From assembly GCF_003334785.1 (NCBI RefSeq), contig NZ_QOWV01000003.1: a DNA stretch of 64,000 nucleotides; one strand, 5' to 3'. Source of the DNA: Escherichia coli. Its GTDB lineage: Bacteria > Pseudomonadota > Gammaproteobacteria > Enterobacterales > Enterobacteriaceae. Below the pieces are notes generated by a model that did no database searches, was not told the origin of the DNA, and saw nothing but the letters and a program-made list of their open reading frames with translations. The first letter of the stretch is position 1; every line of letters begins with the position of its first letter. Below are positions 26,181 to 63,265 of this stretch, piece by piece. The position numbers were made by a program, and so were the translations under genes.

Positions 26181-28996
26181 ATCGGCTTAAGGAAGCGTGC
26201 CGTGTGTGATGCTTCGCACTCCGCGACGGTTTCTGGCGTACCGGAGACGAGGATCTCGCCGCCACCACTGCCGCCTTCTGGTCCCAGGTCGACAATCCAG
26301 TCAGCGGTTTTGATCACGTCGAGATTGTGCTCAATCACCACAATGGTGTTGCCCTGATCGCGCAGTTTATGCAGTACGTCGAGCAGTTGCTGAATATCGG
26401 CGAAGTGCAGACCGGTGGTCGGCTCGTCGAGAATATACAGCGTCTGCCCGGTGCCGCGTTTTGACAGTTCACGCGCCAGCTTCACGCGCTGGGCTTCACC
26501 GCCTGAAAGGGTGGTTGCGGACTGCCCCAGTCGAATGTACGTCAGGCCAACGTCCATCAACGTTTGCAGCTTACGCGCCAGTGCAGGTACGGCATCAAAG
26601 AACTCACGCGCCTCTTCGATGGTCATATCCAGCACTTCGTGGATGGTTTTGCCTTTGTACTTAATCTCCAGCGTTTCACGGTTATAGCGTTTACCTTTGC
26701 ACTGGTCGCACGGCACGTAGATATCCGGCAGGAAGTGCATCTCCACTTTGATCACGCCATCGCCCTGACAGGCCTCGCAGCGTCCGCCACGAACGTTAAA
26801 GCTGAAACGTCCCGGCGTATAGCCGCGCGCACGGGATTCCGGTACGCCCGCAAACAGTTCGCGCACAGGCGTAAACACGCCGGTATAGGTCGCCGGGTTA
26901 GAACGTGGAGTACGACCAATTGGGCTTTGGTCGATATCGATCACTTTATCGAAATGCTCCAGCCCCTGAATATCGCGATACGGTGCTGGTTCGGCGATGG
27001 TCGCCCCATTCAACTGGCGTTGGGCAATCGGGAACAGTGTGTCGTTAATCAGCGTCGATTTACCGGAACCTGAAACCCCGGTGATGCAGGTAAACAGACC
27101 CACCGGCAGCGTCAGCGTCACGTCCTTCAGGTTGTTGCCGCGTGCGCCTGTCAGCTTCAGCACTTTTTCCGGATTCGCCGGAACGCGTTTCTTCGGCACT
27201 TCAATCTTGCGTTTGCCGCTCATGTACTGCCCGGTCAACGACTCCGGCACCGCCATAATCGCTTCCAGCGGACCTTCTGCGACCACTTCACCGCCGTGAA
27301 CACCTGCGCCCGGGCCAATGTCGATCACATGGTCAGCGGCGCGAATTGCGTCTTCGTCGTGCTCCACCACAATCACGGTATTACCGAGATCGCGCAGATG
27401 GATAAGCGTACCCAACAGGCGCTCGTTATCACGCTGGTGCAGGCCGATAGACGGCTCGTCCAGCACGTACATAACGCCAACCAGGCCCGCACCAATCTGG
27501 CTCGCCAGACGGATACGCTGTGCTTCACCGCCAGAAAGCGTTTCTGCCGAGCGGGAAAGCGTCAGGTAATTCAGGCCGACGTTAACGAGGAATTTCAGAC
27601 GATCGCCGATCTCTTTAAGGATTTTTTCTGCAATCTTCGCCCGCTGACCTGCGAGTTTGAGATTGTTGAAGAATTCCATCGCATGACCAATGCTCATGTC
27701 GGAGATAGCAGGCAGCGGCGTATTCTCGACATACACGTGGCGCGCTTCCCGACGCAGACGCGTCCCTTCGCAGCTGGCGCACGGACGATTACTGATAAAC
27801 TTGGCTAATTCTTCGCGTACCGCGCTGGATTCCGTCTCTTTATAGCGGCGCTCCATATTATGCAGCACGCCTTCGAACGGATGACGACGAATGGAGGTAT
27901 CGCCACGATCGTTCATGTATTTGAATTCAATGTTTTCTTTGCCAGAACCGTACAACACCACTTTATGCACGTTCGCGCTCAGGCTGCCCCACGGCGCTTC
28001 GACGTCGAACTTATAGTGATCTGCCAGCGATTTCAGCATCTGGAAATAATAGAAGTTGCGGCGATCCCAGCCACGGATCGCACCACCAGCCAGCGACAGT
28101 TCCGGATTCTGGATCACTCGATCAGGATCGAAATATTGCTGTACGCCAAGGCCGTCGCAGGTCGGGCAGGCCCCCGCCGGGTTGTTAAACGAAAACAGTC
28201 GCGGCTCCAGTTCACGCATACTGTAGCCGCAAATTGGGCAGGCGAAGTTGGCGGAGAACAGCAGCTCTTCCGCTTTCGGGTCGTCCATATCCGCCACTAC
28301 CGCGGTACCACCGGAAAGCTCCAGCGCGGTTTCAAATGACTCGGCAAGACGTTGGGTAAGATCGTCACGCACCTTGAAGCGATCAACCACCACTTCAATG
28401 GTATGTTTCTTTTGCAGTTCCAGTTTTGGCGGATCGGAAAGATCGCAGACTTCGCCATCAATACGAGCACGGATGTAGCCCTGGCTTGCCAGGTTCTCCA
28501 GCGTTTTGGTGTGTTCGCCTTTGCGCTCTTTAATGATTGGCGCGAGTAGCATCAGACGCTTGCCTTCCGGCTGCGACAGCACGTTATCCACCATCTGGCT
28601 GACGGTTTGCGCCGCCAGCGGGACGTCGTGGTCCGGACAGCGCGGCTCGCCAACGCGGGCGAATAACAAACGCAAATAGTCGTGGATTTCGGTGATTGTC
28701 CCCACCGTAGAACGCGGGTTATGAGACGTCGATTTCTGCTCAATTGAGATGGCAGGAGAAAGCCCCTCAATATGATCGACGTCCGGCTTTTCCATCAGTG
28801 ACAGAAACTGCCGCGCGTAGGCGGAAAGGGATTCAACGTAACGGCGCTGCCCTTCGGCATATAAGGTGTCGAAAGCGAGCGAGGATTTGCCAGAACCCGA
28901 AAGCCCGGTCACGACAATGAGCTTGTCGCGGGGGATAACGAGGTTGATGTTTTTGAGATTATGGGTGCGGGCGCCCCGAACTTCGATCTTATCCAT
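26174..28996 (-). CDS. uvrA: excinuclease ABC subunit A
   Basis: 940-aa [60 protein letters not shown]...; two ABC ATPase modules and zinc-finger cysteines. Confidence 0.97.
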
Positions 28997-29786: not shown

Positions 29787-29850
29787 TTTGTCATTAAAAC
29801 AATAGGTTATATTGTTTTAAGGTGGATGATTAAAGCATCTGCCAGCCATA

Positions 29851-32593: not shown

Positions 32594-33058
32594 ATGGAAA
32601 AGAAATTACCCCGCATTAAAGCGCTGCTAACCCCCGGCGAAGTGGCGAAACGCAGCGGTGTGGCGGTATCGGCGCTGCATTTCTATGAAAGTAAAGGGTT
32701 GATTACCAGTATCCGTAACAGCGGCAATCAGCGGCGATATAAACGTGATGTGTTGCGATATGTTGCAATTATCAAAATTGCTCAGCGTATTGGCATTCCG
32801 CTGGCGACCATTGGTGAAGCGTTTGGCGTGTTGCCCGAAGGGCATACGTTAAGTGCGAAAGAGTGGAAACAGCTTTCGTCCCAATGGCGAGAAGAGTTGG
32901 ATCGGCGCATTCATACCTTAGTGGCGCTGCGTGACGAACTGGACGGATGTATTGGTTGTGGCTGCCTTTCGCGCAGTGATTGCCCGTTGCGTAACCCGGG
33001 CGACCGCTTAGGAGAAGAAGGTACCGGCGCACGCTTGCTGGAAGATGAACAAAACTAA
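32594..33058 (+). CDS. soxR: MerR-family redox-sensing regulator with 2Fe-2S cluster
   Basis: 154-aa [39 protein letters not shown]...; [12 protein letters not shown] cluster-binding motif. Confidence 0.95.
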
Positions 33059-33191
33059 AGCGCCACAAGGGCGCTTTAGTTTGTTTTCCGGTCTTTGTCT
33101 TTCTCTCTATCCCGCTGGTACACAGGAGGGTTTCCCCCGACGTCAACACACCTCATTCGAGCACGTGGTGGAGGTTCCGGTTGGTGTTGAT
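33052..33191 (-). ncRNA. ryjA: possible small RNA RyjA (placement approximate)
   Basis: Recalled from K-12 annotation as a ~140-nt sRNA antisense to the soxR 3' end; the only sequence support is the bidirectional terminator hairpin at 33056-33086. Confidence 0.3.
33056..33086. terminator. bidirectional terminator hairpin at the soxR 3' end
   Basis: ctaaagcgccacaagggcgctttagtttgtttt: stem ctaaagcgcc/ggcgctttag; T-rich tail on plus, TTTTGTT on minus. Confidence 0.7.
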
Positions 33192-55817: not shown

Positions 55818-57865
55818 TGCGTGGCTCCTTGTGCCTGTTCCGTGGCGGGCGTTAATGCCGGGGCTGTCCAGTCTGGCAAGCGGGCGAAAAGCTGGCAGAC
55901 GTGTTGCTCCTGTTTTAATAAGGTGGGCAGGATGGCCTGAGAGGCGGGTGTCTCTTCAAGCGTTATTTGAGGAGAACGGCTGAGTGCGGTTGCCAGACCG
56001 GCAGCGTATTTCTCCAGGGCGTCGGCAAACTGACCTGCTCTGTCCGGCTGTAGTGCGTTATCCAGCGCCTGCGCCGAGTTCCAGGTGGCATCCCAGGCGT
56101 GAAGAAGATCGCGGCCCTGACGAATAACCGTTTGCGAACGTTCAATCAGTAATGCGCGTTCTTCGCTGTCCAGTTGACGCTCCAGCGCCACGCGTTGGCA
56201 CATCTCTTCACAGGCATTAAACGCCGCATGCAGACCGATACGAATTTGCAGATAAGTGCGCAGAGCCGTGACTTCCTGCTGGCGTGGGATCCGCATTACT
56301 TTACTTAACATACCCAGCGTGCCAGCCAGTTTTTGCGGCAGTGTGCGCGCTTCACTTTCAGGCCAGACAAAGGTGTAAATCACCGCGGACACCACGGTAC
56401 CAATGATGATACCCAGGGCGCGATCGCGAATTTCCACCAGGTCGTACACTGGGCCAAAAACGTTTTCGAGCGTGGCGAGCGCGAAGGTGACCACCATCTG
56501 TGTGCCGATATAAGAAGAGCGTTCAGAGCTGGTGGCAATCCATGCGCCCAACAGGAAAATCGGTGCCAGCACAAACAGCAATTCGACAATATTGTCCAGC
56601 CAGGGCATGACCAGTAGCGTGAATAACAGCGCCAGAATCGCGCCGCAAAAGGCCCCGCCAAAACGCAGCACCATCTTCTGGTACGACGAACCGACATTTG
56701 GGTTAGCGACGATCACGCATGTCAGCATACAGGTGTGAATGCCTTCCCAGTCCACGCCGCTGTAAAAGGTGTAACAGATCAAACAGGCGAGCAGCGTTTT
56801 TACCGCGTAGCGCATATAGTCTGGATTGGTAAAAGCATCGGCGGCCATTGATGGCGGTTTGGCTGCGGGCGTTGGCGGCGTATTCGGGTCCATCTGACCC
56901 AGTTGTAACAACGTCTGGCAGATATTCTCCAGGTTACATTCCCGTGCCGCCATCGCTTCACTTTCACTGATCCGCCAGTCGCTTTGCCAGCACTGACCTT
57001 CAGCAACGGCATGCTGCAGCTTGTTGATTTCTGAAGCTAATTTTTGTCGGAATTCAATAATTGCCTGAGAATCAGCAAAAGAGGTGGGATCGTAGCGATT
57101 CAGCGTCGAGTAAATGTAGGTTACCGTTGCCACGCAGCTTTGCCACCATGCGTTTTGAGTTCGCCAGTTGGCATCGTCCGCGAGGCAAAAGACATTGAGT
57201 TTTTGTAGCGCCAGCGCCTCTCTTTCAATCCGCGTTTCGGGTAGCGGTGCGAGGCTGTCTGTCAGGTGACTAATGGCATCATCAAGCCGATCATTAAGCG
57301 CCTGATGCATTTGCGAAATGGCACGACTGGGAAACCACAGCACGCCGATTAACGTCATCAGCAAGGTTGGATAGAGGCCAACAACGATACACCACAGCGT
57401 TAAGCGCACGACCACTTCCGGATAGTCGAGCATGGCGGGGAAGGTTTGCCCGTAAATAGCGACAATGGCGACGGCGAAAAAGACCAGCCCCAAGCGATGG
57501 GTGCGCATCAAAAACATGCAGCCCATCAGGATCGGTCCGGCGATGATCAATCGGATCAACGGTTCGCCGTATGACCATTTGTAGATCAAAAACAGGCTGC
57601 CGATCTCCAGCACCGTGGCAACCACAAACAAGATCGCGACAAATTTGGTGTAAAACGCGTTCGACTGAATACCGTAAAACAGCACTGCCAGCGATAACGC
57701 CACAAAAGGGATCTCAAAGGTCATCGAGATCAGAATCACCAGCAGGCAGCCTACCCAGAGTTGCACGGTCTGCGGCACGCGACCTGGTCGCCGCTCGCTT
57801 AACTCTTCATGAAAGAACGCCAGCAGCCTGACCACCGGTAATGGCAGGGAGTTGAGCGCGCTCAT
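55814..57865 (-). CDS. mdtO: inner membrane efflux component (FUSC/aromatic acid exporter-like)
   Basis: 683-aa polytopic ORF MSALNSLPLPVVRLLAFFHEELSERRPG...; start overlaps mdtN stop by 1 nt. Confidence 0.9.
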   Translation of the reverse strand: MSALNSLPLPVVRLLAFFHEELSERRPGRVPQTVQLWVGCLLVILISMTFEIPFVALSLAVLFYGIQSNAFYTKFVAILFVVATVLEIGSLFLIYKWSYGEPLIRLIIAGPILMGCMFLMRTHRLGLVFFAVAIVAIYGQTFPAMLDYPEVVVRLTLWCIVVGLYPTLLMTLIGVLWFPSRAISQMHQALNDRLDDAISHLTDSLAPLPETRIEREALALQKLNVFCLADDANWRTQNAWWQSCVATVTYIYSTLNRYDPTSFADSQAIIEFRQKLASEINKLQHAVAEGQCWQSDWRISESEAMAARECNLENICQTLLQLGQMDPNTPPTPAAKPPSMAADAFTNPDYMRYAVKTLLACLICYTFYSGVDWEGIHTCMLTCVIVANPNVGSSYQKMVLRFGGAFCGAILALLFTLLVMPWLDNIVELLFVLAPIFLLGAWIATSSERSSYIGTQMVVTFALATLENVFGPVYDLVEIRDRALGIIIGTVVSAVIYTFVWPESEARTLPQKLAGTLGMLSKVMRIPRQQEVTALRTYLQIRIGLHAAFNACEEMCQRVALERQLDSEERALLIERSQTVIRQGRDLLHAWDATWNSAQALDNALQPDRAGQFADALEKYAAGLATALSRSPQITLEETPASQAILPTLLKQEQHVCQLFARLPDWTAPALTPATEQAQGATQ

Positions 57866-59351: not shown

Positions 59352-59392
59352 AAAATAAATACTTTTGGGGGCTTCAGCGCCCCCAAAAGCGA
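59352..59392 (-). terminator. rho-independent terminator of yjcS
   Basis: ttttgggggcttcagcgcccccaaaag hairpin 7 bp after the yjcS stop; T-rich tail on the minus strand. Confidence 0.75.
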
Positions 59393-59398
59393 GTGACA

Positions 59399-61384
59399 TT
59401 AATTTGGGGTTACGATATTCACCCACAAATCGAAATTATCCAGACAGGCGATAATTTCTTCCAGTTTCGCGCCATTGCCAATAATTTTGGCTTTCTTCGC
59501 TTTTACCAGATCCGCCATTTTGGCTTGTCCGGTCAGCACGGCGTGCAGATCTTCACGGCTGATGTAGAAAGAGGCGTCGGCTTGCGGTTGCAGCGTTTTC
59601 CGGTAGTTAAGCACGCTATCGTTCAGCGTCAGGTTGAGGTTATCGCCGTTGCTCATATTGAAGTTCAGGCTGATATTTTTACCCGCAGCTTTCGCGCTAT
59701 CGAGGCGAACGGCCATAAAGTCGAACAGCATTTCGACCGACATCCCGCGAATGGTGTCCGGGGAACCGGTGGTGCCGTGGCTGAACTTATGCACCCCTTC
59801 GCGCAGCTCTTTCGCGCCGGTCAGGTAGAAACCGCGCCATGTGGCGGACTCGGCCTGATAGCCCAGCTGTTCAAAGTTATTCGCTTGCAGATTCTTCGCG
59901 ACCTGGTCACCCGGGTTGGCGGCAATCACCTGTTTCAGCAGTTCTGCCGACCAGCGGTAATCACCTTGCTTGTTCGCTTCTTGCGCCAGGTTGATGACAC
60001 GGGCAGAACCGCCCAGCGCCTGCACGTAACGTTTACCCATCTCCACCTGACCATACGGATGCAGGTTAGCCGGGTTACCGTCGTAATAGCCAAGATAGAA
60101 GTTATACACCGCGCGGGCGTTGTGGCTGACAGAACCGTAATAGCCGCGGCTGGCCCAGTTATTGGCAAGTGCAGGCGGCAGCTTAATCATGTCGCCGATT
60201 TCATTCATGGTGTAGCCCTGGTTCGCCAGGTGCAGGGTCTGGTCGTGAATGTACTTGATGGTATCGCGGTATTTACCAATATAATCATTGATATGCTTAT
60301 TGCCCCAGACCGGCCAGGTGTGCGGCATAAACAGCACTTCCGCGTCGTTACCCCACATATCCAGCGTTTCGTTCAGATACTCGGTCCACTTGCTGGTGTC
60401 GCGGGTTTTCGCGCCGCGCAGAGTGTAGAAGTTGTGCAGGGTATGCGTGGCGTTCTCGGCGGTACACAGGGCTTTCAGGGCCGGAATATAGAAGTGCATT
60501 TCGGCTGGCGCTTCGCTACCTGGGGTCATCAGGAAGTCAAACTCCAGGCCGTCGATAATCATCTTCTCGCCAGTTCTGACGATAGTTTTCGTCGGTGCAA
60601 TAATGCTCGGGTCGCCCGTTGCCAGCGTCACGCCAAGGCCATTACCCACATTGCCTTGCGCGTTGTGCGGCAGTAACAGACCGTAAGAGTAGAGCGCACG
60701 GCGGCTCATGATGTTACCCGCCAGCACGTTTTCGCTGATGGCTTCGTCCATAAAGCCTGCAGGGGCAATCACCTGAACTTTGCCGGATTTAACATCGGCT
60801 TCAGAGATAATGCCTTTCACGCCACCATAGTGGTCGGTGTGGCTGTGAGTGTAGATAACGGCAACAATCGGTTTTTGCGGACGATGCTGGAAGTAAAGGT
60901 CAAGTGCGGCTTTTGCGGCAGGCGGCGTCACCAGCGGGTCGATAACAATAATGCCTTTCTCGCCCTCAACGAACGTAATGTTAGAGATATCCTGGCCGCG
61001 CACCTGATACATTTTATCGGTGACTTTGAACAGGCCAGAAATACCGTTGATTTGCGACTGACGCCACAGGCTGGGGTTTACGGTTTCCGGCGCTGCGGCA
61101 TTAATATCAAATTTGTAATCGTCCGCGCGGTAGTAAACTTTACCGTTCGCATCACGCAGAATACCTTCATCCAGCAGCGGGGCGATAAATCCACGCTGGG
61201 CATCGTCAAAATCCTGACGATCGCTAAACGGTAATGATTTGGCGTAATTCTGATTAACCTGTTGGGTATATTGAGTGGCGGCTTTCGCTTCCTCTTTCGC
61301 GTTAGCGGTATTTACCATCATGCCGCTGGCGGCAGTTAACGCAATAACAATCCTGCTCAAACGGAATAACCGAGAGTTATTCAT
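59399..61384 (-). CDS. yjcS: putative alkyl/aryl-sulfatase (metallo-beta-lactamase fold)
   Basis: ORF 59399-61396; start placed at ATG giving 661 aa ([29 protein letters not shown]... signal peptide); metal-binding motif HSHTDHYGG. Confidence 0.88.
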
Positions 61385-61613
61385 ATAAATCTCCATTTAT
61401 CATTTATGTCGTAAATATGTAATCCATGCAAAATACGTCATTTAAAGCTGGCGTTATCATAATTGGGAAATTGCGACTTTAATAAGTGGAAGTGTGAGCG
61501 GAACGCGCCATTTTATTAGGCATTTGTGCTGAAGAGGGAAAATTACAGTAAAACTATCATTGCAGAAAATAATATGAGTCGTTTTATGTGTTTATTATAT
61601 ATATTGTACCTGT

Positions 61614-61650
61614 CGTTGGCACAGCGGGACATTGCGCTACTGTGCCAACG
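61614..61650. other. perfect 11-bp inverted repeat with 15-nt spacer in the yjcS-alsK spacer
   Basis: cgttggcacag-cgggacattgcgcta-ctgtgccaacg followed by TTTTAC on the plus strand. Confidence 0.6.
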
Positions 61651-61656
61651 TTTTAC

Positions 61657-63265
<1,609 letters not shown>

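Follow-up and report, generated by a model that had tools for sequence, protein, structure and literature searches.

A palindrome immediately after alsK in Escherichia coli is most likely a 3′-end stem-loop without a U-tract

The spacer between yjcS and alsK of Escherichia coli contains a perfect palindrome with a run of T's on the plus strand, while both of its neighbours are read from the minus strand, which raises the question of which strand, and which gene, the palindrome serves. An earlier note, made from the sequence alone, had suggested either that an unannotated small transcript of the plus strand ends here or that the palindrome is a protein-binding site for the regulation of als or yjcS. 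We address this question within the 64,000-nucleotide stretch of E. coli DNA that was analysed (the window). The RefSeq annotation agrees with the note on the orientation of the flanking genes. alsK (61657–62586, minus strand) encodes D-allose kinase and is the last gene of the als operon; its stop codon is the TCA at 61657–61659 (TGA on the minus strand). Downstream of it lies yjcS, an alkyl sulfatase gene that is likewise encoded on the minus strand (59399–61384). Between the two, RefSeq annotates no feature, and no terminator feature marks the 3′ boundary of the als operon. The spacer, described as AT-rich and 260 bp long, measures 272 bp (61385–61656), with a G+C content of 32% over 61385–61613. 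It is 100% identical to E. coli K-12 MG1655 (NC_000913.3, 4306598–4306869), so that K-12 coordinates are obtained locally by adding 4245213 to the window coordinate.

The two arms of the palindrome, CGTTGGCACAG (61614–61624) and CTGTGCCAACG (61640–61650), are 100% complementary over 11 bp with 15 nt between them, and the perfect 11-bp inverted repeat reported for 61614–61650 is therefore confirmed. In the sense of alsK, the element reads CGUUGGCACAG-UAGCGCAAUGUCCCG-CUGUGCCAACG and forms a stem-loop consisting of a 5′ arm (61640–61650), a 15-nt loop (61625–61639) and a 3′ arm (61614–61624). Read in the direction of alsK, a 6-nt linker, GUAAAA (61651–61656; TTTTAC on the plus strand), separates the stop codon from the start of the stem. 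The hairpin has a folding energy of -19.5 kcal/mol in the plus sense and -20.0 kcal/mol in the minus sense, with modest z-scores for its 61-nt context compared to dinucleotide shuffles (-1.9 and -2.7). First-order Markov simulations, with loops of 3–20 nt, give an expectation of 0.28 perfect 11-bp inverted repeats per 64 kb. The window holds five distinct ones, including the terminator of yjcS at 59362–59389, and the yjcS-alsK palindrome is not a chance feature.

The other perfect inverted repeats of at least 11 bp are located at 62066–62096, inside the alsK coding sequence, at 29794–29820 and at 33052–33082. The last of these has 13-bp arms and T-rich flanks on both strands, giving it the look of a bidirectional terminator. 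A second, imperfect palindrome, TTAGCACAG-AA-CTGTGGCAA, lies within the 3′ end of alsK (61667–61686), where both arm motifs of the hairpin recur 50 bp away. Together with the stem-loop, it makes up four TTRGCACAG-like half-sites within 70 bp. This second palindrome is not conserved in a divergent E. coli (locus L005).

The distribution of the hairpin among E. coli genomes indicates to which gene it belongs. Some part of the spacer is matched in 5,353 of 5,426 complete E. coli genomes, and the hairpin is found together with the 3′ end of alsK in 3,368 of the 5,426; the alsK 3′ end is missing from about 38% of them. Two arrangements that lack als are instructive. In L002, a rearranged remnant of rpiB replaces als; L003 is from O157:H7, in which, according to published work, the island OI167 stands in for the allose loci. 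Both retain the K-12 sequence from the yjcS start codon to approximately 61607, and neither has the hairpin, which starts at 61614. Beyond approximately 61607, the K-12, L002 and L003 arrangements are mutually unrelated. The als-less lineage represents a rearranged arrangement, not a clean deletion. Because what the als-less lineages share stops short of the hairpin, the hairpin belongs to the als segment and not to the upstream region of yjcS. The spacer itself divides into a portion common to all lineages (61385–61546) and a variable portion (61547–61607). The first of these, the ~160 bp adjoining yjcS, is nearly identical in all lineages, whatever stands beyond it. The seven nucleotides at 61607–61613 are the divergence point of at least three arrangements, namely als present, the rearranged rpiB remnant and the O157 island OI167 (L002, L003, L004 and L029). 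In other genomes, IS903B or ISKpn26 is inserted in the yjcS-alsK spacer.

This location also invites a different explanation, in which the edge of the als segment carries a functionless remnant, a neutral junction or scar left by acquisition or rearrangement, and the palindrome looks conserved only because the als alleles of Escherichia are young. The palindrome lies ~5 bp or less from the point at which three genome configurations diverge, the locus is prone to rearrangement (IS903B, ISKpn26, the rearranged rpiB remnant and the OI167 replacement), and the palindrome is absent from other genera with alsK. No second copy of the arms was found at the far (rpiB) end of the als segment or elsewhere in the window, which counts against a relic and led us to reject paired boundary repeats of the segment. 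The hairpin occurs at one place per genome. A member of the REP/BIME or another repeat family was likewise rejected, as the element is single-copy, with no second copy in the window. It resembles REP/BIME elements, which stabilize upstream mRNA, in being an intergenic palindrome right after a stop codon and in its proposed role as an exonuclease barrier. It differs from them in copy number, in its unrelated sequence and in having no Rfam match.

Comparison with more distant relatives bears on the same issue. A one-genome-per-species scan for close relatives of AlsK yielded 16 loci, and the hairpin follows alsK in only two of them, the divergent E. coli L005, whose AlsK is 89% identical, and E. 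whittamii (L018). What follows alsK in Citrobacter, Klebsiella, Kosakonia, Cedecea, Enterobacter and Superficieibacter is unrelated sequence, and the hairpin is not conserved in these genera. Within this sample, the hairpin thus appears only in Escherichia, and the cross-species conservation that the earlier note had proposed as a check holds for L005 and E. whittamii and fails outside the genus. Several other genera have non-homologous stem-loops of their own within a few nucleotides of the end of alsK, most of which lack a T-tract, although G+C content was not controlled for in this observation. A common motif, TTCGACACGTCAAAACTGACGA...TTTTCGTCAG, occurs ~60–120 nt after alsK in seven loci, of Klebsiella, Citrobacter, Enterobacter and related ones (L008, L011, L012, L014, L016, L017 and L019), where it possibly serves the regulation of the gene that follows.

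In E. whittamii, the alsK stop codon is elsewhere and the stem starts ~17–18 nt after it. Compared to K-12, the arms differ at 1 of 22 positions in L005 and at 2 of 22 in L018, and the loop at 3 of 15 and 1 of 15, respectively. In the same two genomes, the last 300 nt of alsK are 13–17% different, the 60 nt after the hairpin 35–40% and the rest of the spacer 14%. By this comparison, the stem is the best-conserved stretch of its neighbourhood. Among the sampled alleles, the 5′ arm (alsK sense) is invariant except in one singleton, L027, and the loop, with four variable positions, is more variable than the arms. The 3′ arm carries a C-to-U change in both outgroups, and the terminal pair is broken in E. 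whittamii. Divergence within E. coli is too low to prove selection on pairing. Nevertheless, a difference of 4.5–9% in the arms against 35–40% in the adjacent non-coding DNA of two divergent Escherichia is not what a neutral relic would predict, and neutral drift would be unlikely to leave a perfect 11-bp repeat intact while altering the loop and flanks around it. We therefore hold a relic of the segment edge to be an unlikely origin of the palindrome.

The substitutions within the stem offer a clue to the strand on which it is used. The sole recurrent one, present in both outgroups, leaves RNA of the alsK sense with G·U in place of a G-C pair, whereas plus-sense RNA is left with a mismatch, A·C. 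The outgroup hairpins retain -17.5 and -15.2 kcal/mol in the minus sense compared to -13.2 and -12.1 kcal/mol in the plus sense, and 97.0% of the cells are paired in the minus sense compared to 93.9% in the plus sense. This pattern is suggestive of a minus-strand RNA, with the caveat that the substitution is possibly a single event in two related outgroups. No double-sided compensatory changes in the stem were found in the sampled alleles, and the singleton E. coli allele L027 runs counter to the pattern, its plus-sense fold being the more stable.

The sequences that follow the stem differ between the two strands. On the plus strand, the stem is followed by TTTT (61651–61654) and then ACTCAT, and this tail, TTTTACTCAT, includes the TCA of the alsK stop codon. 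On the minus strand, the sequence past the stem is ACAGGTACAATAT, and the U-run is absent, as the note had observed. The T-tract weight is 0.08 for the minus-strand tail ACAGGUACAAUAU and 3.38 for the plus-strand tail, compared to 2.95 for the yjcS terminator. It is this plus-strand tail, scoring higher than that of the yjcS terminator and placed behind a stem of -19.5 kcal/mol, that could make the hairpin and its UUUU an intrinsic terminator, either of a small RNA or of an antisense or divergent transcript from the yjcS upstream region that would be stopped before it ran antisense to alsK. With a G+C-rich stem of about -20 kcal/mol and, in K-12, four T's on one side and four A's on the other, the hairpin does resemble canonical intrinsic terminators, including bidirectional ones.

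The T-run, however, is not a stable property of the locus. Position 61651 is T in 1,440 complete E. coli genomes and C in at least 1,881, as counted with allele-specific 31-mers, and C is also found in both outgroups. The description of TTTT after the repeat is thus accurate for the K-12-type allele, and does not hold for the at least 1,881 genomes with CTTT. Replacing T by C lowers the plus-strand T-tract weight from 3.38 to 1.65. Since both outgroups and all sampled non-K-12-type alleles have C (CTTT), the T at 61651 is a derived, minority, K-12-type allele, and the terminator look of the K-12 plus strand comes down to one C-to-T change adjoining the stem.

The hairpin also departs from an intrinsic terminator in its architecture. 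A U-rich tract of ~7–8 nt would be expected; the plus strand provides UUUUACUC in the 1,440 genomes and CUUUACUC in the others and in both outgroups, and the strand of the genes has no U-tract. The expected loop is compact (~3–8 nt), whereas this one has 15 nt. With such a loop and a tail of four U's, the element fails a consensus terminator scan, which makes no call on either strand. Nor is there a transcription unit to terminate: no plus-strand gene reads into the hairpin, and promoter matches on the plus strand of the AT-rich spacer reach 8/12 at most, so that the promoter prediction advised by the note returned none of 9/12 or better. The putative RNA body (61547–61613) is the least conserved part of the spacer, with a 2-nt indel in one sampled allele, and the hairpin is missing where the spacer is kept and als is absent. 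Two small plus-strand ORFs (61526–61696 and 61588–61743) span this variable stretch, including the indel, and run antisense into alsK. No Rfam family matches; a search at a permissive E-value returned noise only (isrA, with 13.9 bits against a gathering score of 51, and JUMPstart).

The curated Term-seq list of Adams et al. (2021), which comprises only ~1,000 dominant ends per condition, contains no 3′ end on either strand of K-12 4306300–4307099 in three growth conditions. The earlier note had staked its small transcript on plus-strand 3′ ends near 61655, and none is listed there. Taken together with the weak promoter matches, the derived T-run, the A·C mismatch in the plus sense and the poorly conserved body, this leaves the unannotated plus-strand transcript unsupported, and we regard a plus-strand terminator as very improbable. 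For als, the reading of the same list is different: because als is not induced in LB or M63 glucose, the missing end is uninformative for this operon and not contradictory.

For the minus strand, Supplementary file 2 of Adams et al. (2021) provides a Rho-termination-region coordinate at K-12 4306814, which corresponds to 61601, 13 nt past the stem in the alsK sense. The Rho score is 4.46 (p = 6e-9), with upstream/downstream reads of 53/32 in untreated cells and 75/202 with bicyclomycin. This coordinate marks where 800-nt windows are best divided and does not resolve a 3′ end to the nucleotide. The data indicate that Rho acts on the minus strand at the yjcS-alsK spacer. As the downstream reads under bicyclomycin (202) exceed the upstream reads (75), part of the signal probably stems from transcripts started in the spacer, at the yjcS promoter, rather than from als read-through. 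The untranslated stretch 3′ of the stem, which is also the yjcS upstream region (61385–61613, minus strand, 229 nt), is AU-rich in the minus sense and contains more C than G (44 vs 29), with a C/G ratio of 1.6–2.3 over the first 150 nt, a weak criterion. It is a candidate zone for Rho loading and termination.

Such a combination has a precedent. Dar and Sorek (2018, NAR 46:6797) reported that Rho-dependent transcripts of E. coli end, at steady state, just past stable stem-loops without a U-tract, and that a mild bias of C over G follows these stem-loops. Termination takes place further downstream, and PNPase and RNase II trim the transcript back to the stem. The idea of a protective 3′ stem-loop is a hypothesis of Peters et al. 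(2012). The earlier note dismissed the minus strand for its missing U-run; stable stem-loops of just this kind, lacking a U-run, occur at Rho-terminated 3′ ends of E. coli.

The palindrome is, on balance, probably the terminal stem-loop of the als mRNA, on the minus strand and without a U-tract, of the protective type found at Rho-dependent 3′ ends. This reading is based on its position, its linkage to als, the conservation of the stem, the wobble substitution, the lack of a U-tract, the C-over-G bias and the bicyclomycin-sensitive boundary. In the proposed mechanism, the stem would form 6 nt past the alsK stop codon after the departure of the terminating ribosome. Without a U-tract, efficient intrinsic termination on the minus strand would be improbable, and RNA polymerase would enter the AU-rich, untranslated spacer, with its excess of C over G, where Rho would terminate transcription. 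The 3′ tail would subsequently be shortened by PNPase and RNase II as far as the stem, and the stem would shield the als mRNA from further 3′-to-5′ decay. We infer that als transcripts end at the stem, and that this end is made by Rho and the exonucleases.

The element shares with the protective 3′ stem-loops of Dar and Sorek (2018) a stable sense-strand stem-loop just past the last ORF, no U-rich tract, a slight excess of C over G in the sequence that follows and, on the same strand, a published boundary that responds to bicyclomycin. It differs in that no steady-state 3′ end is mapped here, als being uninduced, and in its long loop of 15 nt. A further difference is the A-rich linker that precedes the stem in the K-12 allele, a feature that Dar and Sorek report as atypical of the protective class.

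The other suggestion of the earlier note, a protein-binding palindrome, finds partial support in published in vitro data. A gSELEX-chip peak of Shimada et al. (2021) at 4,304,842 (old K-12 numbering) corresponds to 4,306,819 in the current numbering (+1977, verified on the sigma-54 sites of fdhF and pspG) and to 61606 in the window, ~8 bp from the stem. This peak was obtained with NtrC alone (43%) and with the RpoN holoenzyme plus NtrC (41%), and its target was assigned as yjcS. A probe covering 61371–61744 was gel-shifted by the RpoN holoenzyme, by NtrC and by both, in vitro. The inverted TTGGCACAG boxes of the palindrome (61616–61624, plus strand, with the inverted copy at 61640–61648, minus strand) could accordingly bind RNA polymerase-sigma-54, NtrC, or both, upstream of yjcS, and act either as a sigma-54 promoter of low strength or, without productive initiation, as a "repressive" site in competition with an overlapping sigma-70-like promoter. 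The -24 element of sigma-54 promoters, TGGCAC, is present as TTGGCACAG in both arms. The box is identical to those of glmY and glnA, here on both strands, and the minus-strand arm TTGGCACAGT equals the first 10 nt of the glmY sigma-54 promoter. The spacer also resembles the NtrC-assisted "repressive promoters" of Shimada et al. (2021) in being a published in vitro target of NtrC and of the RpoN holoenzyme plus NtrC.

The remainder of a sigma-54 site is lacking. A matrix built from 50 ChIP-defined sigma-54 sites recovers pspG (18.0) and fdhF (16.8) as the top matches of the window, yet scores the arms at -1.4 (minus) and -7.6 (plus), compared to 7.8–21.0 for real sites. With scores below zero and positive controls recovered, a true sigma-54 promoter was rejected. 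The -12 element TTGCW is not at the fixed spacing, the minus-strand GC being 1 nt too close. At best, matches to an NtrC box have 5–6 mismatches in 14 positions, a background level that 139 sites of the window equal or surpass. The locus is not listed for the RpoN holoenzyme alone in gSELEX, and no in vivo sigma-54 site appears here in the ChIP-seq tables of Bonocora (2015) or in the ChEAP ChIP-exo supplements. Neither the array resolution nor the 374-bp probe localizes the binding to the palindrome. Moreover, it is als, not yjcS, that the palindrome accompanies, and als-less lineages that carry yjcS are without it. An AlsR operator was also rejected, as the published gSELEX gives a single AlsR/RpiR target, the rpiR/rpiB spacer. 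We consider it unlikely that binding of sigma-54 polymerase or NtrC accounts for the palindrome; binding at the DNA level could nonetheless coexist with its role in RNA.

Elsewhere in the window, further matches to the sigma-54 matrix reach 13.6–14.6 bits, within the range of ChIP-defined sites, at 36918–36934 (plus), 49231–49247 (plus), 26565–26581 (minus), 11395–11411 (minus) and 55892–55908 (plus). The known sigma-54 promoters in the window are those of pspG (17913) and fdhF (54205).

The best sigma-70-like match, GTGCCA-17 nt-TATAAT (10/12; 61594–61622, minus strand), faces yjcS, and its -35 box falls inside the 3′ arm of the stem, a point that would favour protein binding. Its -10 box is conserved in the outgroups, and the spacer between the boxes is 17 nt in K-12 compared to 20 and 18 nt in the aligned outgroup sequences. 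This overlapping promoter does not explain the palindrome. A start from this match, predicted near 61587, would give yjcS a 5′ UTR of ~200 nt, and the conserved 160 bp adjoining yjcS may hold the real yjcS promoter. A published gSELEX table lists yjcS among the targets of SutR, a regulator of sulfur utilization, which would fit since yjcS is an alkyl sulfatase gene.

The RNA and DNA roles could also be combined in a dual element, in which the stem-loop caps the als transcript while the -24 boxes hold NtrC-assisted sigma-54 polymerase, non-productively, over the sigma-70 -35 box of yjcS. Such an arrangement seems quite improbable. If it existed, the 3′ boundary of the als operon would also serve yjcS as an operator responding to nitrogen, and it would do so only in lineages that carry als.

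Setting this combination aside, the palindrome is most likely an ordinary, hitherto unannotated E. coli 3′-end stem-loop without a U-tract. If confirmed, the terminal stem-loop would set the 3′ boundary of the als operon, and the T/C difference at 61651 would constitute a natural allele pair for the gain or loss, by a single base, of terminator activity on the opposite strand. The locus also calls for caution in annotation: T's behind a hairpin on the "wrong" strand do not necessarily betray a hidden gene, the T-run in this case being a one-base polymorphism. The overlap with a published in vitro target of NtrC and sigma-54 is a modest lead for the regulation of yjcS.

Finally, the window is not strictly MG1655. 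In the gltP-yjcO spacer (50956–51220), MG1655 is longer by a net 338 bp, with approximately three extra copies of a ~113-bp tandem repeat; outside this spacer, the compared stretch is at least 99.9% identical.
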